A stretch of DNA of 64,000 nt. It comes from a candidate division WOR-3 bacterium (lineage in GTDB: Bacteria > SDB-A). Each line of letters opens with the position of its first letter. Within the stretch, counting starts at the first letter, position 1. The translations under genes and the position numbers were made by a program. Positions 3,038 through 21,510 of this stretch are shown here, in pieces. A model generated the notes under the pieces. It saw only the letters and a program-made list of their open reading frames with translations. It searched no databases and was not told the DNA's origin. The stretch is taken from the NCBI GenBank assembly GCA_016926475.1, contig JAFGON010000040.1, positions 10,849 to 74,848 of the forward strand, in the 5' to 3' direction.

Positions 3038-5248
3038 ATGCCCAAGCAGGTCATAATATTCGCTTTGCTGGCTTTTTTCGGGTTTTCCTGCAGGGAAATA
3101 GGCACTCAACAAAACAACTTGCCGGACATCGTCAAACCCATCAACTCGCCAACCGAAAGAGTGTCAATGGAAAATGTCGAAATTACGACTGATTTTGGAA
3201 AGCAATTCTATGAGACCACACCTTACAGGTCCGAACCTGGAATGAAAACCGCTGGCCTGCCTTTTGACCAGAACGAAATAATAAACCTCGATGAAGTCCT
3301 GGCTTTCTCCGGCTTATCTTCTGTTCCCGCGGAACTGCTTCAAAACGGATTCATCATTTACACAGGTAAAAACCTTGGAGACAATCCTGTCGAAGCGTTT
3401 GAGATCGTAGAGAGCGCGGACCAGCCCGTTTATGTATCGTCGGGGATACCCCTTCATCTCATGCACATTTTTTTCGACAACTCGCTTAAATACTTGGAAG
3501 AAAAATTTATCTACGCGGATTTATTTGAAGTAATGGAGCATATATACAAAAAAAACATCGAAAGGGGAAATCAAACCGCCGCTTCATACGCCGGTGTTGC
3601 TCTCAAGCTTCTTGAACCGGATTACGAACTCGACATATCGGTTTCGGGTATGGTCGATCAGGAGCTGAAATTGATTGAAGAACACTCGGGTTTTGCGCAG
3701 AGTAACATTTTTGGGTACAAAGAAGATTTTTCCCAATACGTGCCAAGAGGACACTACCCCGCGAGCGATTCACTTAAAAGGTATTTCAAGGCGATGATGT
3801 GGCTTGGAAGGATGACTTTTCCACTTCATGGAAACCAAGGTCAGCAGGATATGTACCTCGTCTCAAACGAGGAAGCAATCTACCTCACTGCTACAGCTCT
3901 GCAGATAGTATCCGATCTTTGCTCCGACACGGCTCCTGACGGATCCAAGTACATAGACAAGTGGCGTAAAATATATACTCTGACAGCTTTCTTCGCCGGT
4001 TTTTCGGACGACATGTCTGTTCCAGAATACGCTGAAGCTTTTCGTGAAGCCACAGACCAGGAATTGACCGCCGGGGAGATATACACAGAGGAATTTCATG
4101 GAAAGATAGCACAAGTTTTGAAAAAATATTCTGATTCAAAAATATACAGCGGAACTGGGAGCCTTGTCTCAATGCCGGATTCCTCAGGAAATTTCGACCC
4201 TGAAGATTTGGATAAAGCTTTGACTATAACCCAGGGTTTCAGGCTTTTCGGCCAGAGATACACATTCGACAGTGAAGTTCTCGGCAAGATGGTCTTCCCG
4301 ACCGTGGGATACAACAGACAGGGAAATCAGCGCTTCATGCCATCCGGACTCGACATCGGAGCAGTATTTGGAAGCAGGAAAGCTTACGAAATACTCTGTA
4401 TTAGAGGCGACACGGCGTTTGCCGATTACGACAAATCACTTCAGTTCATGAAGGATAAAATCGGGAGTTTCGATCAGGATTTTTGGCATCAGACTCTTTA
4501 CAACAACTGGCTTTTGTGCGCACGCCTTGTTTTAAAAGACAAGGGCGAGGGCTACGCGGATTTCCTGAGGACTGAAGCTTGGCAGAACCATTGCCTGTCA
4601 AATTTTCTCGCCTCATGGTCCGCCCTTAGGCACGACAACATTCTATACGTAAAACAGAGCTACACCATGGAAGCTGGGTGCGCTCCTAATGATGAACCAT
4701 ACATCCCTCCGCCTCCCTCCGCAGGTTTTGTAGAACCTGTTCCTGAAGTCTACGCTGAAATACTATCCGTTCTCAACATGCTCCAAAGCGCCCTGGAATC
4801 TTACGGCTATTTCGACGAAGAGCTGAGCTACAAGTTCGAAATGGCGAATTACATGATGGAGACGGTCAAGGAGATATCCGAAAAAGAGCTCTCCGGAGAG
4901 GCGATAACCGCAGAAGAAGCGGATTTTCTGAAAAGTTTTTCTTCCGGTCTTGGAAACGCGATTTCCTCCGGAGGAGAACTATCCGAAGGAACCCAGACGA
5001 GTCTGGTGGCTGATGTCCACACTGACCAGAACAGCTCGTCGGTTCTCGAAGTCGCTTCAGGAAATCTCGACCTGGCTGTCGTAGTGTACGCCAGACCGGA
5101 TGGATACATTGAAGCCGCTATGGGGCCTGTCCTGAGCTACTGGGAGTTCACCTGGCCGATGAGCGACAGACTCACCGATGAGAAGTGGAGGAATTTGATT
5201 CGAGAAAATACAATCGCAAGACCGGAATGGGTCTATACCACCGATTGA
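3038..5248 (+). CDS. Hypothetical lipoprotein (large secreted protein, unknown function)
   Basis: Long ORF. The ATG at 3038 is preceded by aaaggagg. The signal peptide ends in a lipobox-like LLAFFGFSC. No catalytic motif was recognised. Confidence 0.5.
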   Translation: MPKQVIIFALLAFFGFSCREIGTQQNNLPDIVKPINSPTERVSMENVEITTDFGKQFYETTPYRSEPGMKTAGLPFDQNEIINLDEVLAFSGLSSVPAELLQNGFIIYTGKNLGDNPVEAFEIVESADQPVYVSSGIPLHLMHIFFDNSLKYLEEKFIYADLFEVMEHIYKKNIERGNQTAASYAGVALKLLEPDYELDISVSGMVDQELKLIEEHSGFAQSNIFGYKEDFSQYVPRGHYPASDSLKRYFKAMMWLGRMTFPLHGNQGQQDMYLVSNEEAIYLTATALQIVSDLCSDTAPDGSKYIDKWRKIYTLTAFFAGFSDDMSVPEYAEAFREATDQELTAGEIYTEEFHGKIAQVLKKYSDSKIYSGTGSLVSMPDSSGNFDPEDLDKALTITQGFRLFGQRYTFDSEVLGKMVFPTVGYNRQGNQRFMPSGLDIGAVFGSRKAYEILCIRGDTAFADYDKSLQFMKDKIGSFDQDFWHQTLYNNWLLCARLVLKDKGEGYADFLRTEAWQNHCLSNFLASWSALRHDNILYVKQSYTMEAGCAPNDEPYIPPPPSAGFVEPVPEVYAEILSVLNMLQSALESYGYFDEELSYKFEMANYMMETVKEISEKELSGEAITAEEADFLKSFSSGLGNAISSGGELSEGTQTSLVADVHTDQNSSSVLEVASGNLDLAVVVYARPDGYIEAAMGPVLSYWEFTWPMSDRLTDEKWRNLIRENTIARPEWVYTTD

Positions 5249-5279
5249 AAATTGCTGATTCAATAGAAGGTTGAAGACG

Positions 5280-6872
5280 ATGAAAAAAATAATTTTTCTG
5301 ATGGCTTTATCCGCCTCGCTGCAGGCGGAAACTATTAGGGTTGCGATCGCCGCGACTTCGGATCTTCAGAGCGTTTTGGTGCCGTACGAGTTGAAAATCG
5401 GAGACTCTGTTTTCACGGTCGGAGGATTCAGCAGGATATCTTCCTTTAAAAATAACCTCGAAAGCGATACTGCCCTCGACGGGGTCTTTCTCGTATCTTC
5501 GGGGGATGACTTCATCAACCCCATTTATTCGGTTTTTTCCGGGCAACCTGAAGTCAGAGGCATGAACTTAGCCCGTTATGACGTCTATTGTCCGGGAAAC
5601 CACGAATTCGACAACGGAACAAAGATGTTTTCAAACGCCATTTCAGAAGCCGAATTTGAAATAGTCTGTGCCAACATCACCTTTTCAGACAGCGCGCTAA
5701 ACGAAATTGTCAAAGACTATTCCACGTTTGAAATCGAGGGAGTGAAAATTGGATTTTTCGGTTTGATGACCCCGGATTTTTTTAAATTGACTAATCCCGG
5801 AGATTCACAGGTTTTCATGACCGAAGATATTTTTAAAGTCGCCGAGAGGGCGGTTGTCGAATTGGAATCTCTGGGATGCGGCGCGGTCATAGGTGTGACG
5901 CACACCGGTTTCAGGATTGACAGTTTGCTGGCTGAAAATGTCGAGGGCATCGACCTTATTATCGGAGGACACGACCACACCCAGTATTATGAGTACGTCA
6001 ACGGAGTCGCTCTCGTCCAGAACGGTGCTGGTTCGCAGACGATCGGAACCCTGTTTCTGACTTTCGAGGATGATTCTCTGAAGGTTATAGACTTTTGTTC
6101 GCGATACCTCGATTCGACAGTCGGTGAAGACGAGTTTGTCAGGGAAGAGATGGACGAATACTATGAAAAATACCAGGAAAGCCTTTCGGAGAAAATTGGC
6201 GTTTCTTTGACTTCTTTCGACACGAGAAAAGAAGTCGTGCGAGGAAAAGAGTCCAGTATCGGCGATCTGATATGCGACTCGTGGCTCTATTGGTTGGATG
6301 AAACCGATATCGCATTTATAAACGGCGGCTCTATAAGAGGAGACAGGGAGTTTCCGCCCGGAGACATAACCTACGGAACAATAGCTGAACTTCTGCCGTT
6401 CAGAAACGAAATAATTGAATTGAAAATGACTGGCAGCCAGATCAAGAGCGTTCTTGAGGTTTCAGCCTCGGGTCAGCTCGGGGCTCCCAACAACTGTCCG
6501 GATTCCATGAGAGCTTCATACGGAGGCTTTCTGCAGGTCGGTGGCATAAGATTTGTCATCGACACTTCCAAAGTTTCTTTCTGCGGCGTTTATTCGGGAA
6601 GAAACTTGATCGAAATCGTCGAACCCGGCGAGCGAATAAGCGAGGTGGAGGTTTTCGAAGACGGGAAATGGCTGGAACTCGAGTTGGACGGTCAATACAC
6701 CGTCATAGTCAGCGACTGGATAGCCGGGGGTGGAGACGGGCATTATGTTTTTTTGGACTCCTCGTTGGAGAGGGAATCGACTTCTATATACGCTCCTGAT
6801 CCGTTGTTGAACTTCATCCTGGAAAAAGGTGAAATCGAATTTTTTCCGGATGGAAGGATAAAAGTCAAGTAA
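5280..6872 (+). CDS. Secreted 5'-nucleotidase / UDP-sugar hydrolase-like metallophosphoesterase
   Basis: Signal peptide MKKIIFLMALSASLQA. Calcineurin-like motifs GNHEFD and GGHDHT, followed by a 5'-nucleotidase C-terminal-like domain. agaagg lies upstream of the ATG at 5280; the track's earlier start is a TTG. Confidence 0.8.
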   Translation: MKKIIFLMALSASLQAETIRVAIAATSDLQSVLVPYELKIGDSVFTVGGFSRISSFKNNLESDTALDGVFLVSSGDDFINPIYSVFSGQPEVRGMNLARYDVYCPGNHEFDNGTKMFSNAISEAEFEIVCANITFSDSALNEIVKDYSTFEIEGVKIGFFGLMTPDFFKLTNPGDSQVFMTEDIFKVAERAVVELESLGCGAVIGVTHTGFRIDSLLAENVEGIDLIIGGHDHTQYYEYVNGVALVQNGAGSQTIGTLFLTFEDDSLKVIDFCSRYLDSTVGEDEFVREEMDEYYEKYQESLSEKIGVSLTSFDTRKEVVRGKESSIGDLICDSWLYWLDETDIAFINGGSIRGDREFPPGDITYGTIAELLPFRNEIIELKMTGSQIKSVLEVSASGQLGAPNNCPDSMRASYGGFLQVGGIRFVIDTSKVSFCGVYSGRNLIEIVEPGERISEVEVFEDGKWLELELDGQYTVIVSDWIAGGGDGHYVFLDSSLERESTSIYAPDPLLNFILEKGEIEFFPDGRIKVK

Positions 6873-8063: not shown

Positions 8064-8978
8064 ATGTTTATTTTTCAAATTTTTGCCGTTTTGCCCATGG
8101 TTTTGTCAGGAGCCGATTTCTCCGGACGCTGGCAGACGACATACGGCGTCATGATCTTGGAACAGGAAGGGCAAAAGGTGACTGGCGGTTATTTCTTCAA
8201 CGGATACTGCCCCATAGAAGGAGAGGTGAATTCCTGGGGCAGGCTCGTTTTCAGGTACAACGAGCCGACAACATCCGGCGAAGGCTGGTTTGAGCTCTCT
8301 TCGGACGGGGATTCTTTTACCGGAAAGTGGAGAGAAGATGGAAAATCTCTTTGGTATGATTGGAATGGCTGCAGAAACGGGCTGTCTCTCGACACTTCGA
8401 AGATCTGGCTCGTAGTCCTCGAGGCTGAATGGCAGGAAACTCTCGACGAAAACGACTATTCTTTCGGCGAGATGCTCGAGGCTTTTTTCTCCCGCCTTCC
8501 AGACATCGAAGTCAGGCAGAGGTATGTCCACGATAAAGACGACCTGAGAAATTTCTGCGCTGAAACAGCTGGTCTTGACGGAAGAGTCTGCCTTTTGTTC
8601 GCGACGCATGGCGAGAAAGACGGCCTCGTCCTCAGGGATGGAATAGCGGGAGCGGAGGATATAGTGAGAGTTTTGGAACCTTGCGGCAATTTAGTTCTCG
8701 TCCATTTCAGCTCTTGCAACATAATGTCGGGTGAAGCGCCGGACAGAATAATAAATTCCCGTGACGACTGGCCCGAAGGTTTTGTCGTATCGGGCTACCT
8801 CAACCCAGTGGATTGGGCAGGCAGCGCCGTTTTCGAATTTTTCTACCTGAATTTGATTTTTGAGCAGGGCCTGACGCCGAGGGAAGCCGCAAAGACCGCC
8901 GAGTATCTCTTCAGATTTTCCGGTGAAGAAACCATAGACGGAATCGACGGACTGGGTTTTGAGTGGAAAGAGCCCTGA
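8064..8978 (+). CDS. Hypothetical secreted protein
   Basis: Starts MFIFQIFAVLPMVLSGA (signal-peptide-like). Contains LLFATHGEKDG ... LVLVHFSSCN, which is reminiscent of a clan-CD His-Gly/Cys dyad; this is a weak resemblance. Confidence 0.45.
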   Translation: MFIFQIFAVLPMVLSGADFSGRWQTTYGVMILEQEGQKVTGGYFFNGYCPIEGEVNSWGRLVFRYNEPTTSGEGWFELSSDGDSFTGKWREDGKSLWYDWNGCRNGLSLDTSKIWLVVLEAEWQETLDENDYSFGEMLEAFFSRLPDIEVRQRYVHDKDDLRNFCAETAGLDGRVCLLFATHGEKDGLVLRDGIAGAEDIVRVLEPCGNLVLVHFSSCNIMSGEAPDRIINSRDDWPEGFVVSGYLNPVDWAGSAVFEFFYLNLIFEQGLTPREAAKTAEYLFRFSGEETIDGIDGLGFEWKEP

Positions 8979-12172: not shown

Positions 12173-15038
12173 AATTATCGATTTCGGAAAGAGTTTAATC
12201 GATCGAACGGCGGAAATCGCAATCGAAAACGATTTAAAAAATATTTTCATTTTGTATCCGTCAAAGAGGTTTGAAGTCTTTCTAAAAGAAGAGTTCAAAA
12301 AAAGGTTGAAAACCGTCCGTTTTCTGCCGAGGATGGACACGATAGACGAATTTGTGATGAGGCTCTACCAAATGAACCAGCCGGGCTTCAAAATCGCCTC
12401 TGAAATCGAAACTTCTTTTGTGCTATGGAAAACGCTCAAAGAAATTTCGCCGGATGGAATGTATTTGGGGAAAAAAGAGATTTCGAATTTCGTATCCTTT
12501 TATCCATGGGCTTTGAAACTGAAAAAATCTGTCGAGCAGATCCTCGTGGAGTCGGAAAATTTACCTGATCAAAACGCCGTCTATGAAAAATTCGTAGAGA
12601 TGGGCGAATATTTCAGGGAATACAGGGATTTTATAGCGAATTTGCCCCTTGTTGTAAACGCTTACGTCCAAGCGCACAACGAAATGAAGCTGTTCACGAG
12701 GGGTGTAGCTTACAGGGGTTTAACCGGAGAGAAGTGTCTTGATGTCTTGAAAGCTTGGGATTTGAAAAGTTTCGTGTTTTCAGGCTTCAACGCCTTGAAT
12801 TTCGCTGAAAAACTCCTTGTAGAAAACATTTTAAAAAATTTTGAGAATTCGATTTTTCTCGTCAGATATCAAAAACCGGATAAAACCGAGTCCCTATCTC
12901 CCTTCAGGACAATTTCCGAGACAGTCCGGAGTTTGAAGGGGGGGTTTAGAGCCGATGTCGGAAAGTCAGAGGTTTTCAGATATTCTGACATAGTGGATAA
13001 AACCGAGGTCTATTCTTCTTCTAACGTGGAGCACGAGATGATTCTCATGCATGACGTCCTTTTGGATTATCTCCAGACTAACAAGAGTTCACGTAGGATA
13101 GGCGTTTTGCTTCCGGAACCTTCTTCTCTTATACCTTTTGTCGAAAACGTATTGACCCGCGTCGACCCTGAAAACGCGGACATGAAATTCAACATAACAC
13201 TCGATTATCCTTTCCAGAGGACTCCGCTATTCCAGCTCCTGGACTCAATTCTTTTAATATCACAAAGTGTCGAAAATGGATTTATACCGACATCTTTATA
13301 CCTCGAGATGATAAGGCATCCTTATATAAAATTAGCCCAAAAATCAGAAAACACTGATTCTCAAAGGATACAGATACACAGGTTTGAGAGCCATGTGATA
13401 GACCTGAACGTCCTGGAACTCGAGCTTGGAGAAGACGGTGATTTTTTGAACATTAAAAATTTCAGCCAGAACTACGAGTATCTCAGGGGCATAAACCGCA
13501 GGTTTCTTCCGGGAAAAAACGAGAGTGTTTCCGATCTTTGCAGGCGTTTGTTGGATTGCCTACTCTTCATAAACCAGAGCCGCAATTCATACCTGTTCTT
13601 CAGAGATTTTTTGAATTCAGCCCAAATAATTCTCGACGAGGTCTTGGAATTCATTGAAAAACAACCCGATTTAGCGCATTTCAAAGATCCGCATAAAAAC
13701 GCCGATTTCATTAGATATCAGCTCTTGAACATACCCGTTCAATTCACAGGCACTCCGCTTGAGGGCATCCAGGTAATGGGGGCTCTGGAGTTCAGGAACC
13801 TCGATTTCGACGCCGTCTTTATTGCTGACTGCGTCGAAGGAATCATGCCTGACTCTTCGAAATACGACCCGGTACTACCCGGAGATATCAAAGAGATTTT
13901 CAAGCTTAGGTCGTATGGTGAATGGGAGAGCATATACGCTTCGAATTTGTTTTCAATTCTGCTTTCCAGTAAAACGGTGAAAATTTTTTACCCTGAGAAA
14001 ATGAGGGAGCAGAGAACAAAAAGGAGCAGGTTTATAGAGAAAATTTGTTTCAGCGACAAAAGGAGAGCGAAGCCAATCGTGAAAAAGATGAACTTTTCGA
14101 TATCGAAAACCGAAAAGATTCTTGAGGTCGAAAAGACAAAAGAAATCAAAGAAAAAATACTCCAAAGAGGGTTTTCTCCAAGCGCGTTTGAAGACTATAT
14201 ATCCTGCCCGATAAAATTTTATTTCAAGAGAATCCTGAATCTTGAAGAGAGGCAGACGCTGGAAGAAGAACCCGACGCCGCTGGAATAGGGACGATTGTC
14301 CACGAATCCTTAAGGGAATTCTACCAAGAAAGAAAAAACGTCAAAACACCGGAAGACATAACCGAGATACTGAAAAAAAACTTTATGGAACAAAACATTG
14401 AAGTTGAAAGCGGGTTGGGAAAAATAAAATTCTGGGGAGTTGATAGAAACCTGAAAAAATTTTTAAGCTGGGACATGGAGAATCAGAACAGAGAAGAAAT
14501 TGAAATTTTACAACTTGAAAAAGAGATAAAAGCGGATTTTGAATTTGAAGAGCAGACGGTTTCATTCAAGGGAAAAGTCGACCGAGTTGAAAAGGTAAAA
14601 GACGAATTGTTTATCTGCGACTACAAGACGAAAGAGAAAATTGTAAAATTGTTCCTCAAAAATTATTTGGAATTTGATGTCCCCCGACTAAAAGAGATCA
14701 CAGACCCTTGTCAATACAGAAAACATTTCAGAAATTTGTCCAATATGTGTAAATGTCATCAGGTAATGATTTATATCGAGATGTGGTCAAAGAATGAAAG
14801 TGAGCAAAAGGGAGAGCTAAACGGCAAATACTATTTTCTGAAAGAAAAAGACAAGGATGTCCAGAAAATTGTCTTGGAGAAAAGTAAAATTGAGTATCGT
14901 GAAAAATATTTGGAGATATTCAAAAGCTTCATGGATGATTTGCTTTTTGGCGACAAGTTTATAACGGTTCCCCATAAAGATGTTTGCATGTATTGCCCGT
15001 TTGAAAATCTCTGTCAAGTCGAAATAAGTCAAAATTAG
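12159..15038 (+). CDS. addB: AddB-like helicase-nuclease subunit (RecB-family nuclease with C-terminal Cys cluster)
   Basis: Overlaps addA by 14 nt. FICDYKTKEK nuclease motif near the C-terminus. Cys residues (CQYRK..., CMYCPFENLC) are consistent with the AddB Fe-S staple. It is large and follows addA directly. Confidence 0.6.
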   Translation: MSKVEIIDFGKSLIDRTAEIAIENDLKNIFILYPSKRFEVFLKEEFKKRLKTVRFLPRMDTIDEFVMRLYQMNQPGFKIASEIETSFVLWKTLKEISPDGMYLGKKEISNFVSFYPWALKLKKSVEQILVESENLPDQNAVYEKFVEMGEYFREYRDFIANLPLVVNAYVQAHNEMKLFTRGVAYRGLTGEKCLDVLKAWDLKSFVFSGFNALNFAEKLLVENILKNFENSIFLVRYQKPDKTESLSPFRTISETVRSLKGGFRADVGKSEVFRYSDIVDKTEVYSSSNVEHEMILMHDVLLDYLQTNKSSRRIGVLLPEPSSLIPFVENVLTRVDPENADMKFNITLDYPFQRTPLFQLLDSILLISQSVENGFIPTSLYLEMIRHPYIKLAQKSENTDSQRIQIHRFESHVIDLNVLELELGEDGDFLNIKNFSQNYEYLRGINRRFLPGKNESVSDLCRRLLDCLLFINQSRNSYLFFRDFLNSAQIILDEVLEFIEKQPDLAHFKDPHKNADFIRYQLLNIPVQFTGTPLEGIQVMGALEFRNLDFDAVFIADCVEGIMPDSSKYDPVLPGDIKEIFKLRSYGEWESIYASNLFSILLSSKTVKIFYPEKMREQRTKRSRFIEKICFSDKRRAKPIVKKMNFSISKTEKILEVEKTKEIKEKILQRGFSPSAFEDYISCPIKFYFKRILNLEERQTLEEEPDAAGIGTIVHESLREFYQERKNVKTPEDITEILKKNFMEQNIEVESGLGKIKFWGVDRNLKKFLSWDMENQNREEIEILQLEKEIKADFEFEEQTVSFKGKVDRVEKVKDELFICDYKTKEKIVKLFLKNYLEFDVPRLKEITDPCQYRKHFRNLSNMCKCHQVMIYIEMWSKNESEQKGELNGKYYFLKEKDKDVQKIVLEKSKIEYREKYLEIFKSFMDDLLFGDKFITVPHKDVCMYCPFENLCQVEISQN

Positions 15039-15074
15039 GTTTAAAAAAACAACCACAACTTGTAAAATGCTAAA

Positions 15075-16487
15075 ATGTCTTCAGAATATTACGTTTCCAA
15101 TAAGTCTATTTCGGTCAGGCTTTTAGGCGAAAGCGACGCCCAGCTTTTTCAGCCTGACACAGGCTCTAAAATATATCTCAATCAGACCGGGCTTTTCATT
15201 TGGAAGTTACTCGACGGCGGTAATTCAAGGGTTGAAATTGTCAACGCTGTTCAGAATGAATTTGACGCTCCCGACAGCAAGGAACTCGACTCCGATATAG
15301 GGCAATTTCTGAGCGGTCTCGAAGAAAAGGGGTATGCCCATTCACGGAATTTTCTTAGAAGAGAACCCAGAAGCACCTATTTCATTCATGAAAATGAAGC
15401 GCCCAGGTCAATTGACATATCTGTTACGAAAAATTGCAACCTGAACTGCAAGTATTGTTTTTATCGCGAAGAGATGAAAAATAGGGAAGACCTGCCCCTT
15501 TCGGAATGGGAGAAGTTTTTGGAGGAGCTTAAAAGCCTTGCGGTCGAAGAAGTCGTGCTGAGTGGTGGAGAGGTTTTTTGCAGAAAAGATCTCTGGGATT
15601 TCATCGATTTGATCGTGGAAAGCAACCTCAGGTATTCGTTTCTTTCAAACGGAACGTTGTTCGACGATTCTGTTCTCAGCGAGCTCGAGAAGGATGGGCG
15701 TAAAAAGAGGCTATCGAGCATACAAATCTCAATAGACGGTTCAAAGGCGGAAGTTCACGATATGTCGAGAGGGAAAGGAAGTTTTGAAAAGGCTGTAAGG
15801 GGTCTGAAAAACGCCATGGGTGCCGGATTAAACGTCACGGTGAGGTTGACGGTAAACAGACACAACCTCGGCGACCTCGAAGAAGCCGCGAAATTCCTGC
15901 TGGTCGATATCGGACTTCCATCTTTCAGCACCAACGACGCGATTCCTCTCGGGGCGGCGTGCTGGAACAAAGACACGATAACACTCGATCCTTTAATGCA
16001 GTTTGAGGCGATGAAAACCCTCGGAAAACTTCAAAAACAATATGACAACAGAATCACGGCGATGGCAGGGCCTTTGGCGAAATGGCATCTTTACCGAAAG
16101 ATGGAGAGGATGAAAAGGCAAGGCGAAAAACCAGAGCCCTGGATGGGATATTTGACGGGATGCGGATGTCCTTTCAGCAAATTGGCAGTTCACCACGACG
16201 GTGTATTTATTCCATGCAATATGCTCTCGAAAATTGAACTTGGCCAGATGAACAAAGATTCTCTGAAAGATGTTTGGATCAACAGCCCTATTTTGAAGAG
16301 GATGAGGGAGAGGCGAAGAGTGCCTATGAAAGAAGTCCCGGGCTGTGAAAACTGCGAGTACAATTTGTATTGCAACGGCAGCTGTCCAGCTTTGGCCGGA
16401 GTGACTGCTGAAAATTTTATCCTTCCAAACCTCTTCGACTGTTACAAGAAATTCAAAGAAGATACAGGCCGGAATCTTGACGAATAA
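15075..16487 (+). CDS. Radical SAM/SPASM peptide maturase with N-terminal PqqD-like RiPP recognition element
   Basis: The N-terminal ~90 aa (KIYLNQTGLFIWKLLDGGNSRVEIVNAVQNEFD...FLSGLEEKGY) match the PqqD/RRE fold signature. CNLNCKYCF is the CxxxCxxC radical-SAM cluster. The C-terminus has a Cys-rich SPASM-type region (GCGCPFSK...IPCNML...CENCEYNLYCNGSCPA). Confidence 0.85.
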   Translation: MSSEYYVSNKSISVRLLGESDAQLFQPDTGSKIYLNQTGLFIWKLLDGGNSRVEIVNAVQNEFDAPDSKELDSDIGQFLSGLEEKGYAHSRNFLRREPRSTYFIHENEAPRSIDISVTKNCNLNCKYCFYREEMKNREDLPLSEWEKFLEELKSLAVEEVVLSGGEVFCRKDLWDFIDLIVESNLRYSFLSNGTLFDDSVLSELEKDGRKKRLSSIQISIDGSKAEVHDMSRGKGSFEKAVRGLKNAMGAGLNVTVRLTVNRHNLGDLEEAAKFLLVDIGLPSFSTNDAIPLGAACWNKDTITLDPLMQFEAMKTLGKLQKQYDNRITAMAGPLAKWHLYRKMERMKRQGEKPEPWMGYLTGCGCPFSKLAVHHDGVFIPCNMLSKIELGQMNKDSLKDVWINSPILKRMRERRRVPMKEVPGCENCEYNLYCNGSCPALAGVTAENFILPNLFDCYKKFKEDTGRNLDE

Positions 16488-17535
16488 GTTTTACCCTCTT
16501 AAAACGATCTACATGTATCTGATGGGCAGCTGCAACCTAAAATGCAGACATTGCTGGATTGACCCGGATTTTGTGGATGTCCCGCAGAAATACTTGACTT
16601 GGACTGAAATTAAGAGGATCTACCAGGAAGCAAAAATAATAGGCCTGTCTTCAGTTAAATTGACCGGGGGGGAACCTTTCCTTCATCCTGAAATTCTCCA
16701 GATAATAACTGGAATAAAAGAACTCGGACTTGGTTTGACCATAGAGACAAACGGTACTTTGTTGGATGATGAGAGAGTGCATGCGCTGAAAAAACACGCG
16801 AATTTCGTCGCCATTTCCATAGACGGCGCTGAACCCAACAGTCATGAAGACCTTAGGGGTGTCGAAGGCTCTTTTGACGCAGTCTTAAAAGGCGCGGGAC
16901 TGCTAAAAAAAGAAGGCTTGGGGTTTCAAGTCATATTTTCTCTCTACAGGAAAAATCTCCGGGATCTTTTTTTGATGCCCAGCTTTGTCGAAGGAATAGG
17001 AGGCGCAAGCCTCAAGGTAAATCCGATCAACGTCGTAGCGAGATCTGAAAAAATGGAAAGAGACGGAGAACTGTTTTCTGTAGAAGAAATTTTAGAAATA
17101 AAAAATGATTTTGACCGTATATCAAAAAAATCAAAACTGACGATAACATTCGATGTGCCTGCCGCTTTTCATAGTCTTGAGCACATTTCGAAACAGGGAT
17201 TTGGAACGTGCGGAATCCTGACTATTTTGGGGATACTCAGCGACGGAACGGCGAGTATCTGCGGCATAGGATCGGTTAAAAAAGAACTCGATTTCGGAAA
17301 TTGCCTCGACCGAGGAATTGAGAATATATGGCGTGAAAATGACACTCTGAATATGCTCAGAGAGAATATACCTCATAACCTGCAGGGTGTATGCATGAGG
17401 TGTGTCCACAAGCATTACTGCCTGGGCAAGTGCGTAGCGGAAACATACGCCAGAACGGGCAGTTTTTTGTCAGGTTATTATTTCTGCCAGATAGCTCAGG
17501 AAAAAGGACTTTTCCCCCCTACGCGACTTTTATGA
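16477..17535 (+). CDS. Second radical SAM/SPASM-domain protein (no RRE)
   Basis: GSCNLKCRHCWI is a CxxxCxxC motif. GGEPFLHPE is a glycine-rich SAM motif. C-terminal Cys clusters (GTCGIL...ICGIG, CMRCVHKHYCLGKCVA). Overlaps the upstream gene by 11 nt and the downstream gene by ATGA. Confidence 0.8.
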   Translation: MTNKFYPLKTIYMYLMGSCNLKCRHCWIDPDFVDVPQKYLTWTEIKRIYQEAKIIGLSSVKLTGGEPFLHPEILQIITGIKELGLGLTIETNGTLLDDERVHALKKHANFVAISIDGAEPNSHEDLRGVEGSFDAVLKGAGLLKKEGLGFQVIFSLYRKNLRDLFLMPSFVEGIGGASLKVNPINVVARSEKMERDGELFSVEEILEIKNDFDRISKKSKLTITFDVPAAFHSLEHISKQGFGTCGILTILGILSDGTASICGIGSVKKELDFGNCLDRGIENIWRENDTLNMLRENIPHNLQGVCMRCVHKHYCLGKCVAETYARTGSFLSGYYFCQIAQEKGLFPPTRLL

Positions 17536-18404
17536 AAGACAAGCCATCATCGGATATAGCGGTTTTTGTGCTATCGGGAGAAAGTATGAAACCGCTTATG
17601 AAGACCGGCGATGTTTTCATGGCTTCAAAAGTTTTTCCGGAGAAATTGAAATACGGCGACATAGTCGTCTTTGAAAAAAATGGAAAACTCGTATCTCACT
17701 CAATCATCAAAGTGAAAAGAGAAGGAACGGATATCAAAGTCTTGACAAAGGGTTTGAACAGAAACGAGGACGACGGATGGACAGATGGGGATGTTTTGAA
17801 ATTCGAAGTCGAAGCCCTGAAAAAGGGGAAACATTTTTTGGGTTTAAACCGGACAAAAAAGACATTTTATTGTGCGTTGGCGCCGTTGAGGAAAAAAATC
17901 CGCAACTGTCTTTTTGAGTTTTCTGTTAAAATTTCGCCACTGTTTCGATTTATGATGAAAAAAGGGCTGATAAAGGTAAAAAAAATTATGTCTCAAGACG
18001 AAGAATTAGTGGTATTATGGGACAGAAGTGTTTTGAAAAGAAGGGGCGATAATAGAGAAATACACCCCTTTTTTAGAAAAGGCGCGGTGAAAGAAGAGGA
18101 TTTAATGGAGTCTGCAGAAAAACAAGGCAAGACAGGTAACGTTTATATGAACCCTGATCTGGTTTTCAGAATTGAGGGAGACGAGGGTCTTGTATATAAT
18201 GTGAAAACAGGTGATTTTAGAATAATAAACGAGACGGGTTGCGCGATTTTAAAACTCGCCAACGGAAACTTCGACAAGAAAGGAATAATAGACCTTATAC
18301 TTGAAGAATACGAATCAAAGGACCAAGAAGAGATGATGGTAAAAGAGGTGGGTGAATTTATTGACGATTTATCAAAACGAGATATAATAAGATTGATTGA
18401 TTGA
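17532..18404 (+). CDS. Soluble SipW/S26-like (clan SF) serine peptidase fused to a C-terminal PqqD-like RRE domain
   Basis: SGESMKPLMKTGDVF is SPase box B with a Ser nucleophile. YGDIVVF, VSHSIIKV and TKGLNRNEDDG parallel the SipW-type HRV/TKGDNN boxes. There is no N-terminal TM anchor. The C-terminal LVYNVKTGDFRIINETGCAILKLANGNFDKKGIIDLILEEYE is PqqD-like. Confidence 0.65.
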   Translation: MKDKPSSDIAVFVLSGESMKPLMKTGDVFMASKVFPEKLKYGDIVVFEKNGKLVSHSIIKVKREGTDIKVLTKGLNRNEDDGWTDGDVLKFEVEALKKGKHFLGLNRTKKTFYCALAPLRKKIRNCLFEFSVKISPLFRFMMKKGLIKVKKIMSQDEELVVLWDRSVLKRRGDNREIHPFFRKGAVKEEDLMESAEKQGKTGNVYMNPDLVFRIEGDEGLVYNVKTGDFRIINETGCAILKLANGNFDKKGIIDLILEEYESKDQEEMMVKEVGEFIDDLSKRDIIRLID

Positions 18405-18423
18405 TTAATTAATTGGGGGAAAT

Positions 18424-18720
18424 ATGAAAAAGAAATACATAAAACCTTCTATTTTAGATTTTAAACCAAGGGTTGCCCAGGGAAATCTTTTTTCGGGAAC
18501 CAACACCAGCAGCCCGGAAGGCGGCTGTACAGCTGGTTCAGCGGCTGATTATTGCAATTATGGACAAATGGCGACCGGTTTTTCTGATTGCGCCAACGGT
18601 TCTGGCGCTATGGACTGCACGCAGGGCGCTTTGGCGAGTGGAAATCTATGCGCCACGGGCACGAACGCGACAGGAGGCGGAGGAGGATTTTGCGCTTCAG
18701 GGTCAAGCCCTCTCGCTTGA
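18424..18720 (+). CDS. Putative RiPP precursor peptide A1 (Cys-rich, Gly/Ser/Ala/Thr-rich core)
   Basis: 98 aa. Strong RBS (tggggg). Leader MKKKYIKPSILDF..LFS..SPEG, then a core with 7 Cys at ~9-13-residue spacing and GGGGGF. It is paralogous to 19750..20040. Confidence 0.6.
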   Translation: MKKKYIKPSILDFKPRVAQGNLFSGTNTSSPEGGCTAGSAADYCNYGQMATGFSDCANGSGAMDCTQGALASGNLCATGTNATGGGGGFCASGSSPLA

Positions 18721-18746
18721 TGTGAAGGTTTAAAAAAGCTAATTGC

Positions 18747-19559
18747 TTGAATGAATTAAAGATCAAAATAGGTTCCATATCTCTGAAATTACGGTCAAAA
18801 GAGCGTATCGGCTTTTTTTCTGATTTGTTTGAATACTTTAAGACAAAAGATGAATGTCTATATGACACTGAGATCGTTTTTTGGGATTGTGAAGACATCC
18901 TCGACTGCATAAAGAAGAAAATTTTTTGGGTGAAAGACAACATAAAATCCGCCAGAAATACTATTCACATGATTTCTTCTTTCGGATTTAAGACAATTGT
19001 TGACGAAGACCAGGGCAAGATATTTATTTTTTCCCCCCAGGAATACAAAGCCAAGGCTTTGAGGGTTTCTGTGGGCTTTTTTTGCTGGAAAATGTTTCCC
19101 AAAGACAAATATCTTTTTTTTCATGCCGCGTCCTGTAAGTTCTCAGAAAACAGCTATCTCTTTCCGGCGAACAGCGGCAAAGGCAAGACCACTTTGAGTG
19201 AAAACGCAATAAAATGCGGCGAGGTATTCAACGACGAGTTTTCTCTCGTCGAGATTACCACAGACGGATATGTTCTTCATGGCACACCTTTCGGGCAGGT
19301 GACGAGCGGACCGATTTTGGGTCAACTAAAAAAAATATTCTTTCTCGAAAAAAGCGAAAAAAACGACTTCAAGAGGATTACGCCCGTCGAATCAATGAAA
19401 ATTGCTTGGGAGGACAACCTATACAGAACAGGGATAACCAATTCCGAAGAGAGAAAATTGGTGTTCAACGAAATTTTGGATATTTTCGAAAATATTCCAT
19501 GTTTTGAGATGAATGTGAGAAAAGATTTCAACGATTTTAAACTACTCGAGAATTTATAG
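18747..19559 (+). CDS. HPr kinase C-terminal-domain-like P-loop protein (putative precursor-peptide Ser kinase)
   Basis: FFHAASCKF...ANSGKGKTTLSEN is a P-loop G-x-S-G-x-GK-T/S as in HprK/lasso-peptide kinases. It is ~270 aa and sits between the two precursor genes. Confidence 0.55.
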   Translation: MNELKIKIGSISLKLRSKERIGFFSDLFEYFKTKDECLYDTEIVFWDCEDILDCIKKKIFWVKDNIKSARNTIHMISSFGFKTIVDEDQGKIFIFSPQEYKAKALRVSVGFFCWKMFPKDKYLFFHAASCKFSENSYLFPANSGKGKTTLSENAIKCGEVFNDEFSLVEITTDGYVLHGTPFGQVTSGPILGQLKKIFFLEKSEKNDFKRITPVESMKIAWEDNLYRTGITNSEERKLVFNEILDIFENIPCFEMNVRKDFNDFKLLENL

Positions 19560-19749
19560 ATCCCTTTTCTAAATAAAATGTTAAAATGACAGAAAACATT
19601 GGAATATAGAGCTGTTTTGGTATTTTTGAATCTTTTCTAAAACTCCGATTTTATAAATAGATAATTAGAGATATTTGCAGTGAATTGTTAATAAAAATAT
19701 TACTTGTTAATTTCCAAAAAAATCAATAAAATGTCAAAAAGGCTGTTTT

Positions 19750-20040
19750 ATGGGGAAAAAGAAGTATATTAAACCTCAAATAAGGTGTTTTGAAGCAATC
19801 ACGGCATATTCACAGCTTTTTTCGAATGAATCACCTGAAGGGGTTTGCACCATAGGCACCGTTGCAAACGCCTGTCAGGAAGGGGGAAGTGCGTCCGGAG
19901 GTCCAGGACAGTGCCTTTCCGGCTCGACTGCCAATTTTGACTGCCTCACTGGGAGTTATGCGCAGGGTTCGGTATGCTCCAACGGAGACCACGCGGCAAA
20001 TCAAGGCGGACAATGTAAAGTGGGTATGAGTCCAAAATAA
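19750..20040 (+). CDS. Putative RiPP precursor peptide A2 (paralogue of A1)
   Basis: 96 aa. Leader MGKKKYIKPQI..F....QLFSNESPEG. The core has 7 Cys, 6 of them alignable to A1, and a C-terminal GMSPK. Confidence 0.6.
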   Translation: MGKKKYIKPQIRCFEAITAYSQLFSNESPEGVCTIGTVANACQEGGSASGGPGQCLSGSTANFDCLTGSYAQGSVCSNGDHAANQGGQCKVGMSPK

Positions 20041-20354
20041 GCAGTGGACGAAGGGTTTCGGGAGTTTTGCTTCTGATGAAAAAAATCAAAAGCAGATGGC
20101 AAAATGAGTGGACAGCTAAAAGATCTGTTTTAAGATGGATTTCAAAACATAATTTTCCCATAATAGGCGATTGAGGTCGCGTGTTCAAAACCAGCAGGCA
20201 GAGAAAAAATATTTTTTAATGATGCATAAAGTTAGAAATAGGCAAATCGCGAAAAATTTCGGGAATTTTTTACTATCTTGGATTGTCGGTGTCCTAATAA
20301 AATCGTTATAAAGATTCATTTCTGGAGACAGTTCTTTTCAGGACACTGCTGATT

Positions 20355-20855
20355 TTGTATTTTTATCATAGGGGGGATTTTGTTTTGAAGAGTATTATCG
20401 AGAGGAAGATAAAATTGTCTGGTGAAACAGAAGATTTCCAGTGTGAAATCATAGAAATTTTTCCTGATAAAGCAATACTTAAATACACAATTGAAAAGGA
20501 AACCTCAGTGGCTGGTCTCGTGCTGAGCCCGGGTGATGTAACCCGAGCTTATTACAGCGAGAAAGAACCTTATGTACTATACAGGTGGTTTTCCAAAAAA
20601 TCTGTTTTTATGGGGGACTATTTCAACATAGCAGATAGCGTGAAAATTTCAGGTGATTGTGTGAGGTGGAGAGATCTTGAGATAGACCTGCTGTTTCTCC
20701 AAAACGGGACGCACTTAGTTTTGGATGAGGACAAGTTGCCTGAAAATATTTCACTTGAACTCAAAAAGTATATAGACAACGCTGTGGATTTCATCGTAAG
20801 AAACTATGAATCAATCGTAGGGGAATTTGACGGAATTAGACTATTCAGACCTTAA
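20355..20855 (+). CDS. DUF402-like (FomD/YgaC-type) protein
   Basis: WRDLEIDLLFLQNGTHLVLDEDKLPE resembles the DUF402 D-L-x-L-D...DEDEL core. The start is uncertain: there is no ATG, and a TTG at 20385 follows aggggggatttt. Confidence 0.4.
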   Translation: MYFYHRGDFVLKSIIERKIKLSGETEDFQCEIIEIFPDKAILKYTIEKETSVAGLVLSPGDVTRAYYSEKEPYVLYRWFSKKSVFMGDYFNIADSVKISGDCVRWRDLEIDLLFLQNGTHLVLDEDKLPENISLELKKYIDNAVDFIVRNYESIVGEFDGIRLFRP

Positions 20856-21510
20856 AAGGATACAGGAAAGGCTTGTTTCACGGGTCAAGATCAAGCCTTT
20901 GAAAAGCGGAATTAGATATGTCGCAGGTCTTGACTGCGCCGTGACGAAAGACAAAATTGTCGGCGAAGCCGTTCTTATGAGTTATCCCGAACTTCAAATG
21001 GAGGAGGAAAAATTCAGCTTCAGAGAGCTCAGTTTTCCCTATGTCCCGGGTTTTCTCTCGTTCAGAGAAATGCCGGCTCTCATTTCTGCCTACCTCAAAC
21101 TGTCGAGAAAACCAGATATGATTATTGTCGACGGGCAGGGAATTCTTCATCCCCGCGGTATGGGTCTGGCAAGCCATTTGGGTGTAATACTCAACAAACC
21201 TTCAATAGGCTGTGCGAAGAGTCTTTTGTGCGGGGAATATGAAGAACCTTCTTTTAGAAGAGGATCTAAAAGCCCGGTGTTTTTGAATGAAAAGATTATG
21301 GGTTATGCCCTGAGGACGAGAGACGGGGTCAAGCCCGTCATTGTATCTCCCGGACATCTCATTACTCCACTGCAGGCGCAAAAACTTGTCCTAGAAATGT
21401 CTTTTTTCAGGCTTCCGGAACCCGTCAGGCTGGCCGACAAGTATTCAAGGGAGAATAAAAAGTATTCTTCGCAGAATAGTAAGGTTTTGGTCGAAAATAA
21501 TGATTTTTGA
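20827..21510 (+). CDS. nfi: Endonuclease V
   Basis: VAGLDCAV...SFPYVPGFLSFREMPALI...MIIVDGQGILHPRGMGLASHLGVILNKPSIGCAKS are the canonical Nfi motifs. TTG start. Confidence 0.75.
   Translation: MTELDYSDLKRIQERLVSRVKIKPLKSGIRYVAGLDCAVTKDKIVGEAVLMSYPELQMEEEKFSFRELSFPYVPGFLSFREMPALISAYLKLSRKPDMIIVDGQGILHPRGMGLASHLGVILNKPSIGCAKSLLCGEYEEPSFRRGSKSPVFLNEKIMGYALRTRDGVKPVIVSPGHLITPLQAQKLVLEMSFFRLPEPVRLADKYSRENKKYSSQNSKVLVENNDF

Follow-up and report, generated by a model that had tools for sequence, protein, structure and literature searches.

The SynChlorMet (SCM) cassette was defined in silico, is already modelled in NCBIfam/TIGRFAMs (ScmC, TIGR04249/PF27840; ScmD, TIGR04248; ScmE, TIGR04250; ScmF, TIGR04251) and is uncharacterised by experiment; its TIGRFAMs description reportedly gives the precursor as not identified. 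Sactipeptides and ranthipeptides are characteristically marked by repeated Cys motifs together with SPASM enzymes that bear two sets of auxiliary-cluster Cys, and PqqD together with radical SAM (rSAM)/SPASM enzymes also makes PQQ and mycofactocin. In lasso-peptide systems, HprK-like proteins paired with PqqD are known, and HPr-kinase homologues phosphorylate the C-terminal Ser of the precursor, with a nucleotidyltransferase building on the phosphate (PMC8498205).

Within the 64,000-nucleotide stretch of DNA analysed here (the window), an uncultured WOR-3 bacterium carries a real six-gene operon. All six ORFs proposed in the first-pass annotation were found in the same direction (+ strand) and their domain assignments stand. 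We read the locus, with a probability of about 0.7, as a chromosomal, vertically inherited RiPP-type peptide-maturation cassette of the SynChlorMet family, the chemistry of which we infer, and the two small cysteine-repeat peptides encoded in it are most likely its targets for modification. The start of rSAM2 overlaps rSAM1 by 11 nt, the rSAM2 stop overlaps the peptidase start as ATGA, and precursor A1 starts 19 nt after the peptidase gene with a GGGGG ribosome-binding site ahead of it; the tight coupling claimed for all six genes does not extend to A2, which follows a 190-nt AT-rich spacer. A near-consensus sigma-70-like promoter (TTGACG-16-TATAAT; 18361..18388, + strand), inside the 3' end of the peptidase gene and just upstream of A1, is the best site between 14500 and 21000 (11 of 12 consensus matches) and is a consensus match only, and a weak promoter-like site (19704-19732) lies in the spacer before A2. 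The gap between addB and rSAM1 measures 36 nt, one less than first given, and the locus is not unannotated as had been stated, since GenBank has a CDS for each of the six genes (MBN1150372-377), generically named 'hypothetical protein' (three of them), 'PqqD family peptide modification chaperone', 'radical SAM protein' or 'signal peptidase I'. No transmembrane segments were predicted in any of the six proteins, and neither an exporter, as already remarked at first pass, nor an immunity gene or transmembrane protein is found in or adjoining the cassette.

The first gene (rSAM1; 15075..16487, 470 aa) encodes an N-terminal PqqD-type RRE fused to an ScmE-like radical SAM/SPASM enzyme, with Pfam matches to PqqD (48.5 bits; residues 24-87, about nt 15144-15335), Radical_SAM (95.5 bits) and SPASM (36.2 bits), the motif CNLNCKYC (CX3CX2C at residue 121) and a complete SPASM Cys set. 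The second (rSAM2; 16477..17535, 352 aa, TTG start), present in GenBank as an identical CDS, encodes an ScmF-like radical SAM/SPASM enzyme without RRE, with CNLKCRHC (CX3CX2C at residue 19), CX2CX5CX3C at residue 306 and a SPASM domain. Against the NCBIfam models, for which the cut-off is 400 bits in both cases, rSAM1 scored 376.4 bits on ScmE across model positions 1-356 of 358 (next family, 129 bits) and rSAM2 scored 324.8 bits on ScmF across the full model (next family, 138 bits). Reciprocal scoring gave 376 bits on ScmE and 110 on ScmF for rSAM1, and 325 on ScmF and 104 on ScmE for rSAM2. Compared with a bona fide SCM cassette (L094), rSAM1 is 36% identical to ScmE (other rSAM loci, ≤28%) and rSAM2 35% identical to ScmF; taken jointly, the identity to these above-cut-off enzymes is 35-37%, and about 78 other rSAM-SPASM loci reach ≤30%. 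By profile score and identity, these are two soluble rSAM/SPASM enzymes orthologous to ScmE and ScmF. Models of PapB, StsB, AlbA, SkfB and ACGX are distant matches (64-94 bits vs cut-offs of 340-850), at superfamily level only.

The third gene (17532..18404, 290 aa) encodes a soluble SEC11/SipW-type serine peptidase domain (about residues 1-95) that is joined through a low-confidence linker to a PqqD/lasso-B1-like RRE at the C-terminus (about residues 205-290). Its N-terminus matches TIGR02228 (signal peptidase I, archaeal/SEC11 type; 57.8 bits, cut-off 51.85), and a profile search of PDB sequences matched the protein to SEC11C (7p2q, E 2.8e-9); the C-terminus matches PF05402 PqqD (31 bits, cut-off 23.4) and aligns with TbiB1 (5v1v) at TMt 0.81 and an rmsd of 2.4 Å in Foldseek. 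The Ser of GESMKP is conserved and His56 and Asp81 are invariant across homologues; the domain scores below the Pfam S24/S26 cut-offs and has 'GLNR' for 'GDNN'. Both PqqD domains of the cassette are ScmD/lasso-B1-like, one being fused to ScmE and one to the peptidase, and relatives of these domains best match ScmD. The view that the combination corresponds to no described class has to be narrowed, given a SynChlorMet relative in NCBIfam/TIGRFAMs and HprK-like proteins with PqqD in lasso systems (PMC8498205), although no description seems to exist of the peptidase-RRE fusion or of the precursor family, a literature search having found no paper on either.

Between the two precursor genes lies that of a P-loop protein (18747..19559, 270 aa), which may begin with the TTG at 18747 or, as GenBank has it, about 26 codons further on. 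Its P-loop motif is SGKGKT, and an identical protein (P0006) carries precomputed Pfam PF27840 ScmC. The best NCBIfam match was HprK_rel_A (E 1.3e-4), with ScmC TIGR04249 at E 2.3e-3, both far under their cut-offs, and the HprK structure 1ko7 matched at E 0.25 among PDB sequences. H126, S143, G146, K147, D163, P181 and F182 are invariant family-wide, and the predicted structure is of too low confidence to be informative (pLDDT 37.5). These matches place the protein in the ScmC family, distantly HprK/PEPCK-like, and the HprK assignment is weak.

Precursor A1 (18424..18720, 98 aa; MBN1150375) consists of a leader, MKKKYIKPSILDF...VAQG, and six CxxGxx[A/P] units, and precursor A2 (19750..20040, 96 aa; MBN1150377) is its paralogue, 47% identical, with the same leader type and number of units. 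The label 'Cys-rich' given to them earlier is correct as far as it goes (6 Cys in A1, 7 in A2) but misses that each core Cys starts a CxxGxx[A/P] unit; none of 100,000 composition-preserving shuffles reached six units, the maximum being 4. The leader is lasso-like (KKYxKPxIxxF), and no NCBIfam or Pfam model matches either peptide. A Ser/Thr in the last unit (C-x-x-G-x-S-P) is conserved but not universal (exceptions: P0013 and a 377-aa protein at L089), and the internal units hold no conserved Ser/Thr. Orthologues of both peptides occur in L001, L004 and L006, with dN/dS of about 0.10-0.16 for A1 where measurable and 0.13-0.22 for A2; both paralogues are kept in four WOR-3 lineages, synonymous sites being otherwise saturated. 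As judged from these ratios (0.10-0.22), A1 and A2 are real genes under purifying selection.

In the fully covered WOR-3 relatives (42-62% protein identity), addAB, rSAM1, rSAM2, peptidase-RRE, A1, A2 and ScmC are followed by DUF402 and endonuclease V, and this fixed chromosomal spot across lineages indicates vertical inheritance, with no mobile element. Taken together, profile matches, synteny and selection analysis bear out the first-pass annotation in its core: a RiPP-type operon, seen outside its own genome, with two rSAM/SPASM maturases, PqqD domains, an RRE-guided SipW-like leader peptidase, two genuine paralogous precursors conserved at syntenic loci and, weakly (E 1e-4 to 0.25), an HprK-like P-loop protein.

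Distant peptides of the A1/A2 design are rare and occur in other metagenomic lineages. A precursor profile run against 1.84 billion representative proteins gave only 10 matches, six of them distant leader-plus-CxxGxxA peptides encoded next to ScmC and/or PqqD genes, or next to a peptidase-RRE fusion (L088, L089, L090, L091-93, the P0013 contig and L167/168). At L089, two ScmC genes accompany two repeat proteins, and neither rSAM nor PqqD lies within 10 kb; at L159, a peptide of 15 units has no Scm gene within 8.5 kb. The motif is specific, no precursor of the CxxGxx[A/P] type having been found in 78 rSAM loci unrelated to this one. When metagenomes were scanned for a DNA pattern of the leader alone, a peptide of two units was located 18 nt away from the stop of the bona fide ScmD-ScmE-ScmF cassette at L094 (ScmE 461 bits, ScmF 480 bits, both >400). 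This link to canonical SCM is seen in one lineage only (L094, L161-166), in which the peptide gene is convergent, has an IS256 transposase next to it and lacks an ScmC gene within 10 kb; the MKKKYxxPxIxxF pattern alone is unspecific and common to many unrelated gut peptides.

In the maturation scheme that we favour, the RREs would recognise the YxxPxI leader in the way that YxxPxL is bound by lasso B1 proteins, after which RRE-ScmE and then ScmF would act iteratively on the six repeat units. The RRE-tethered peptidase would cut the leader about 20 residues in, at a conserved junction of the small-x-small type (A-x-[G/A/S] | Q-L) similar to a signal-peptidase site. With no exporter or immunity gene and the same housekeeping neighbourhood in all relatives, the product may act intracellularly or leave by an unlinked route. 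It is conceivable, if the less probable reading, that the same machinery yields a peptide-derived product used inside the cell as a cofactor, redox agent or metal-binding peptide, comparable to PQQ or mycofactocin, rather than a secreted antimicrobial, the Cys units supplying the functional chemistry. Such a product would suit the lack of a transporter, immunity gene or transmembrane protein in or adjoining the cassette, the vertically inherited position between addAB and DUF402/endonuclease V away from any mobile element, the PQQ and mycofactocin rSAMs among the related families, and the relatives' proteins of 200-377 aa, which hold between 15 and about 40 repeat units and are of unusual size for an antibiotic; however, secreted RiPPs typically have a leader peptidase of their own, hypervariable cores in duplicate and a strong promoter/RBS that serves the precursor separately, export genes may be unlinked, and no redox partner enzyme is encoded nearby.

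ScmC would carry out an ATP-dependent peptide modification, our best guess being phosphorylation of the Ser/Thr of the last unit (C-x-x-G-x-S-P), as by the HPr-kinase homologues of lasso systems. Its invariant His, P-loop and Asp core pattern is typical of HprK/PEPCK-fold kinases, its best NCBIfam match is the HprK-related kinase A family, and ScmC at L091 is paired with PF14907 NTP_transf_5, the nucleotidyltransferase family that acts after the kinase where lasso peptides are phosphoglycosylated. These points make it somewhat doubtful that ScmC is instead an ATP-dependent scaffold or chaperone, a nucleotide-transferring enzyme or even the primary CxxGxxA-unit enzyme with the rSAMs as accessories. 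That alternative draws on ScmC being the most constant neighbour of CxxGxxA peptides, including at loci without visible rSAM (L089, L091, L167 and the P0013 contig, such contigs being mostly very short, however), on its occurrence in an unrelated YcaO/dehydrogenase locus (L007), on HprK similarity confined to the P-loop core, and on internal units without conserved Ser/Thr.

For the rSAMs, the likeliest reaction would be a thioether crosslink from Cys sulfur to carbon, formed inside a unit or from one unit to another, as known for sactipeptides and ranthipeptides, with the invariant Gly(+3) or Ala(+6) serving as crosslink acceptor or steric requirement. Epimerisation, C-C crosslinking or anSME-type Cys oxidation on the repeats, possibly differing between ScmE and ScmF, seems to us a tentative alternative: among characterised families, those that score nearest (WgkB, presumably a C-C linker, 129 bits; AhbD/NirJ) do not synthesise thioethers, and two non-redundant rSAMs are always retained, but Cys is the only invariant reactive residue per unit, the StsB, PapB, AlbA and SkfB models are also matched, and repeated Cys motifs occur here with SPASM domains bearing two auxiliary-cluster Cys sets, as in sacti- and ranthipeptides. 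That the rSAMs serve the maturation of some cofactor or protein from a gene elsewhere (heme- or NirJ-like chemistry), the Cys-repeat ORFs being unrelated, is very improbable, for although AhbD and NirJ are among the better secondary matches and the L159 repeat peptide has no Scm genes nearby, the cassette shows translational coupling, two RRE domains and an RRE-binding motif in the leader, and such peptides co-occur repeatedly and independently with ScmC, PqqD or ScmE/F.

Compared with the SipW/archaeal/eukaryotic SEC11 (S26B) enzymes, the peptidase keeps the SM-x-P Ser box, the GEIVVF box, the His box and the C-terminal-box Asp, but lacks a membrane anchor, is cytoplasmic, RRE-fused and altered at 'GLNR', and its presumed substrate is a RiPP leader rather than a secretory signal peptide. 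With ranthipeptides and sactipeptides (PapB/freyrasin with six Cx3D units, subtilosin AlbA, SCIFF, ACGX-repeat) the locus shares an RRE-rSAM/SPASM enzyme and a core of Cys-anchored units, six here; it differs in the CxxGxxA unit, with small invariant Gly and Ala and no acidic/Asn acceptor, in having two rSAMs, and in the additional ScmC and signal-peptidase-type leader peptidase. With lasso B1/B2 plus HPr-kinase-homologue systems (paeninodin, pseudomycoidin; 'HPr-rel-A system', TIGR04352/04353) it shares an RRE structurally closest to leader-bound TbiB1 and coupled to a leader protease, the Y-x-x-P-x-[I/L] leader motif, an HprK-like P-loop protein and, in the L091 relative, PF14907; in contrast, it lacks the Asn-synthetase-like lasso cyclase and the transglutaminase-fold B2 protease, its protease having a Ser-His-Asp signal-peptidase fold, and combines rSAM enzymes with a Cys-repeat core instead of a lasso core. 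On the strength of its ScmE, ScmF, ScmC and ScmD-like parts, the locus is by homology a divergent relative of the SynChlorMet cassette: the two rSAM/SPASM paralogues are reciprocal best full-length matches to ScmE/ScmF, and the peptide at the L094 cassette shares both its leader and its core motif with A1/A2. All four Scm models score under their curated equivalog cut-offs (376 and 325 against 400, 17 against 125 and 14 against 100), which by that standard makes it a relative rather than a member. It also differs in gene order, in having ScmD in two fused copies rather than free-standing, and in adding the SEC11/SipW-type peptidase and two 6-unit precursors, which hint at what the substrate peptides of the SynChlorMet cassette may be.

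The layout put forward in the first-pass annotation, six co-directional genes at 15075-20040 on the plus strand of this candidate division WOR-3 MAG, was borne out by the ORF list and by the junction sequences. The radical SAM gene rSAM1 (15075-16487, +, 470 aa) is overlapped by 11 nt by rSAM2 (16477-17535, +, 352 aa; TTG start), whose stop codon in turn overlaps the ATG of the gene for the peptidase-RRE protein (17532-18404, +, 290 aa) as ATGA, and the precursor gene A1 (18424-18720, +, 98 aa) begins 19 nt past the peptidase gene behind a GGGGG ribosome-binding site, all of which is seen in the junction sequences as first described. Downstream lie the gene of a P-loop protein of the ScmC family (18747-19559, +, 270 aa) and that of the second precursor, A2 (19750-20040, +, 96 aa). 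The tight coupling originally claimed for the whole block does not extend to A2, which is set off by a 190-nt AT-rich spacer (19560-19749), and addAB does lie just upstream, with an AddB-type PDDEXK nuclease, although the gap to rSAM1 is 36 nt rather than 37. GenBank already holds all six CDS (MBN1150372-377), but under generic names only, so that the locus is under-annotated rather than unannotated.

A promoter-like site (18361-18388, TTGACG-16-TATAAT), the best match in the region with 11 of 12 positions of a sigma-70-like consensus, lies 36 nt ahead of the A1 start codon, where the peptidase gene comes to its 3' end; the site, a consensus match only, would fit over-expression of A1 and suggests separate, stronger transcription of the precursor. 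No terminator-like site was found downstream of A2, no Rfam match in window positions 14000-21500 and no meaningful DNA repeat besides the leader codons common to A1 and A2.

To place the two radical SAM enzymes, we made use of Pfam and NCBIfam profiles, which upheld the initial rSAM/SPASM and PqqD assignments. rSAM1 consists of a PqqD domain (residues 24-87) followed by Radical_SAM and SPASM domains and rSAM2 of the latter two only, with PF04055 and PF13186 passing the Pfam cut-offs in both. Both proteins carry the CX3CX2C motif (C121/125/128 in rSAM1, C19/23/26 in rSAM2) as well as a seven-Cys SPASM motif (C363...C381, C424/427/433/437 and C456; C245...C262, C306/309/315/319 and C337, respectively). 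PF05402 likewise passed its cut-off both in rSAM1 and in the peptidase, which points to two RREs, PqqD-type domains that would bind leaders, encoded next to precursors with a conserved leader. The best NCBIfam families were those of the SynChlorMet (SCM) cassette: rSAM1 scored 376.4 bits on TIGR04250 (ScmE; model positions 1-356 of 358; next family 129) and rSAM2 324.8 bits over the full TIGR04251 model (ScmF; next family 138), leads of more than 240 and 185 bits, respectively, yet both under the 400-bit equivalog cut-off. The assignment is reciprocal, as rSAM1 on the ScmF and rSAM2 on the ScmE model reached only ~105 bits each. The reference ScmE and ScmF of L094, a lineage with a bona fide ScmD-ScmE-ScmF cassette, score 461 and 480 bits, both above 400, and share 36% and 35% identity over their full length with rSAM1 and rSAM2, whereas ~78 other rSAM-SPASM loci stay at or below 30%. 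An exact-sequence contig look-up with rSAM1 gave no match, and a genome-collection scan with clade-specific patterns from the rSAM1 alignment picked up 2 close loci and 78 generic rSAM-SPASM loci but none of the reference SCM genomes.

The 290-aa protein encoded next combines two recognisable domains. Its N-terminal domain scores 57.8 bits on TIGR02228 (archaeal-type signal peptidase I; cut-off 51.85) and matches human SEC11C and SEC11A among PDB sequences (E 3e-9 to 1e-7) in an alignment that spans the GESMKP (Ser), GEIVVF, His and Asp boxes. Homologues conserve the Ser of GESMKP and are invariant at His56 and Asp81. These catalytic boxes and the TIGR02228 score argue for membership of family S26B (SEC11/SipW/archaeal), in which a membrane anchor is typical, whereas the cassette peptidase lacks one. 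The C-terminal domain is a PqqD domain according to Pfam. In the predicted model, which is only partly confident (55.7) and of which just the two well-predicted domains were used, its best structural match is the lasso RRE TbiB1 crystallised with leader peptide (TM 0.81, rmsd 2.4 Å). Given these two domains, the protein is, as read from its sequence, a protease of the signal-peptidase fold that works in the cytoplasm and is tethered to an RRE. A word-indexed homologue search recovered 4 proteins for the peptidase, 3 for ScmC and 1 for A1, each from the same clade only. The literature searched mentions no RRE-signal-peptidase fusion, cassette or motif of this kind, and as far as could be found, a SEC11/SipW-type protease has not been tied before to RiPP leader removal.

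The P-loop protein had been described as an HprK-like kinase. A weak match to TIGR04352 (HprK_rel_A; 21.2 bits, E 1.3e-4), confined to the P-loop region, agrees with this description, but it lies far under the cut-off of 200 bits; on TIGR04249 (ScmC) the protein reaches 17.3 bits (E 2.3e-3) against a cut-off of 125, and precomputed Pfam data place PF27840 (ScmC) on the identical protein P0006 and on its homologues. Alignment of eight ScmC-family members left His126, Ser143, Gly146 and Lys147 (P-loop), Asp163 and Pro181-Phe182 invariant, an arrangement that resembles, on thin direct support, the HprK/PEPCK kinase core: the ScmC profile matched PEPCK 1j3b (E 2e-3) and HprK/P 1ko7 (E 0.25) among PDB sequences, most of the other hits being generic P-loop proteins, and the AlphaFold model (pLDDT 37.5) was too poor for use.

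ScmC-like genes also occur in other settings. At L007:1146-5226, the ScmC-family protein P0008, 28% identical to that of the window, lies in a different RiPP-like context with a YcaO, a nitroreductase-type dehydrogenase, a QueC-like protein, a glycosyltransferase and a 41-aa ORF. At L080:1120-3508, a ScmC-like gene (296 aa) is followed by a free PqqD (93 aa) and a single rSAM/SPASM gene (339 aa) and adjoins a 1934-aa TPR-rich protein, with no CxxGxxA peptide seen. ScmC may be a tailoring enzyme common to several RiPP classes, and since it recurs beside repeat peptides and also accompanies a YcaO locus, a broader and so far unstudied class of RiPP tailoring enzymes that depend on ATP is suggested.

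The two precursors are 47% identical, and in both every core Cys is followed by xxGxx[A/P]. A1 carries the units CTAGSAA, CNYGQMA, CANGSGA, CTQGALA, CATGTNA and CASGSSP, and A2 the units CTIGTVA, CQEGGSA, CLSGSTA, CLTGSYA, CSNGDHA and CKVGMSP; of 100,000 composition-preserving shuffles, none produced six units (maximum 4). Cys, Gly(+3) and Ala(+6) are the invariant residues of the unit, and the last unit reads C-x-x-G-x-S-P in 8 of 8 WOR-3 peptides. The Y-x-x-P-x-[L/I] signature bound by lasso B1 RREs is found in the N-terminal sequence M-K-K-K-Y-I-K-P-x-I-x-x-F, in agreement with the TbiB1 match. About 20 residues in, most family members show a small-x-small junction (VAQG|N, AYS|Q, AEG|Q, LEA|Q, and AYA|Q in the database proteins P0012 and P0014). 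No NCBIfam or Pfam model matched the precursors.

That both Cys-rich ORFs are real genes, as first proposed, was confirmed by their conservation in syntenic loci: A1 and A2 types are both kept in each of the four WOR-3 lineages that were recovered (the window, L001-3, L004/5/8 and L006/9), in one case with the second peptide overlooked by the gene caller. dN/dS amounts to 0.10-0.22 where measurable, synonymous sites being saturated between most lineages, and thus indicates purifying selection on A1 and A2. The gene order is A1-ScmC-A2 in the window and A1-A2 in the three other lineages, then ScmC where the contig reaches (e.g. L004:11183-11643); L004/L005/L008 have Arg in place of the first core Cys of A2. 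The six-gene block recurs outside the source genome, in WOR-3 relatives, and in every relative whose contig extends that far it lies between addAB and DUF402/endonuclease V, which occupy 20355-21510 in the window (DUF402 belonging to a FomD/Ntdp-like nucleotide hydrolase family); in L004, DUF402 starts 42 nt past ScmC. One such contig, L008 (CAYNIW010000023.1), is labelled 'uncultured Desulfuromonadaceae', but it belongs to the 38,057-nt contig type with the WOR-3-like cassette and full WOR-3 synteny, which suggests a binning or taxonomy-label error.

Beyond this clade, a profile of A1 and A2 run against 1.84 billion representative proteins gave only 10 matches, six of them distant peptides or proteins in which CxxGxxA units come after a KYxKPEI leader. 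Their neighbourhoods comprise a peptidase-PqqD fusion, peptide and ScmC-like gene (L088); an RRE, peptide (with the ribosome-binding site GGGGGAAAT, as in the window) and ScmC (L167/168); a ScmD-like PqqD, peptide, ScmC and PF14907 nucleotidyltransferase (L091-93); a peptide and ScmC (P0013 contig); a PqqD and peptide (L090); and, in L089, repeat proteins of 377 aa (4721-5854; ~40 CxxGxxA units) and 214 aa (8104-8748), both with a KKYxxPEI leader, and two ScmC-like genes, while neither rSAM nor PqqD was found within 10 kb. Next to the L089 repeat proteins, the minus strand encodes a Cys-rich protein of 175 aa (CPVCATQCCH...).

We also scanned metagenomes with a hand-made degenerate DNA pattern for the leader alone. 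Among 67 matches, CxxG cores were present in two. One, L159, encodes a 200-aa peptide of 15 units, with no Scm genes found within 8.5 kb. The other, in L094, encodes a 47-aa peptide, MKKKYERPRIIDFDKDLDIGFAKNNTLCNTGNSARRGNCRIGPSTFF, 18 nt beyond and convergent with the ScmD-ScmE-ScmF cassette that scores above the NCBIfam cut-offs, an arrangement seen on >20 contigs of the same organism; no ScmC was found within 10 kb in this lineage, where an IS256 element adjoins. The leader pattern was rejected as a diagnostic, the other 65 matches being unrelated proteins or small acidic gut peptides with fimbrillin-like neighbours and no RRE. Many of these (L095-L158, e.g. L103:4997, L124:3291, L146:2871) are acidic peptides of 47-70 aa from gut and rumen metagenomes that start with MKKKY[IV]xPxIxxF, such as MKKKYISPKITIFEVGEPILAA...DVDDWEDEE; those examined neighbour Mfa_like_1 (fimbrillin-like) or Rep3 replication genes, none near an RRE or rSAM, and the motif alone is therefore not specific to RRE-bound leaders. 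At L161:1-9926, the canonical cassette has fragments of an IS256-family transposase and the BREX-type defence gene BrxL as neighbours, and ScmF is called shorter (315 aa) in some contigs of this type, possibly through decay or assembly variation.

Taken together, these contexts link the peptide family reproducibly to ScmC, PqqD and ScmE/F across distant lineages, although the link to canonical SCM cassettes is found in one lineage only (L094); in the 78 unrelated rSAM-SPASM loci, which served as control, CxxGxxA peptides were absent. A bolder reading, to which we give a probability of roughly 0.45, is that CxxGxxA peptides led by KKYxKPxIxxF are the SCM substrates that have long been missing. 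They would then form a RiPP class of their own, new to the field, with 2 to ~40 units iteratively modified by two rSAM/SPASM enzymes and ScmC, and with leader removal by an RRE-tethered SEC11/SipW-type protease in WOR-3 and L088.

From the observed parts list we infer each step of the following mechanism. The two RREs would bind the Y-x-x-P-x-I leader, and the RRE-ScmE and ScmF enzymes would work repeatedly on the six units. Because of the invariant Cys, Gly(+3) and Ala(+6) and SPASM enzymes with two auxiliary-cluster motifs, Cys-S-to-carbon thioethers, by analogy with sactipeptides and ranthipeptides, are our best guess for the product; one possibility is that S-C links are made by radical chemistry to either of the invariant residues Ala and Gly, and a link to Ala C-beta would amount to a radical-made lanthionine. 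The nearest formal analogy is PapB/freyrasin with its six Cx3D units. ScmC may carry out an ATP-dependent step, with the conserved Ser/Thr of the last unit as candidate site by analogy with lasso peptides, where homologues of HPr kinase phosphorylate the linear precursor at its C-terminal Ser, after which a nucleotidyltransferase can glycosylate the phosphate (PMC8498205). This pair is mirrored by ScmC and PF14907 in L091. Finally, the RRE-tethered peptidase would cut the leader at the small-x-small junction, which resembles an AxA signal-peptidase site. An RRE fused to a soluble signal-peptidase-fold protease would represent a new solution to leader removal.

A serious alternative concerns the role of the product, which may be intracellular (cofactor-like, metal- or redox-related) rather than a secreted antimicrobial, since no exporter, immunity gene or membrane protein was found near the cassette, the missing exporter having been seen at the outset, and since the position between addAB and DUF402 is fixed in relatives; likewise, membrane segments are predicted for none of the six. 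A lasso system was rejected, the Asn-synthetase-like cyclase and the transglutaminase-fold B2 protease being missing from the six proteins and the listed syntenic neighbours, and heme/NirJ-type chemistry was rejected in view of the RREs and precursors.

The locus and its relatives offer a concrete candidate family of substrates that can be tested and whose motif is very regular, a defined leader motif and a minimal gene set for heterologous reconstitution, and point to natural-product-like chemistry in WOR-3, a candidate phylum of which we know no cultured members. While the operon was confirmed and its initial interpretation was largely right, its novelty was overstated, as SCM relatives already exist in NCBIfam. 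SCM is an rSAM/SPASM system predicted in silico and experimentally untouched; searches for SynChlorMet, TIGR04250/51, ScmC/E/F, or HPr kinase with radical SAM and PqqD found nothing relevant in the literature searched, and to our knowledge no substrate has been assigned to SCM cassettes, whose precursor is reportedly called 'not identified' in the TIGRFAMs text.

Overall, characterised sacti- and ranthipeptide maturases share superfamily-level similarity only with the window enzymes, and the closest relative of the locus is the SCM cassette, with a similar working. All four parts stay under the curated equivalog cut-offs, however, and whereas SCM has a free-standing ScmD, the locus has no free PqqD gene: one RRE is fused to ScmE, and the peptidase-RRE fusion is added, its PqqD domain scoring 14 bits on TIGR04248 (ScmD; cut-off 100). 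Even so, a tblastn search with the L094 ScmD finds its best matches in the two fused RREs. These sub-cut-off scores and the different architecture make the locus a sister variant of SCM rather than a member, and what it adds is a family of concrete candidate substrates for a system of this in-silico-defined kind.
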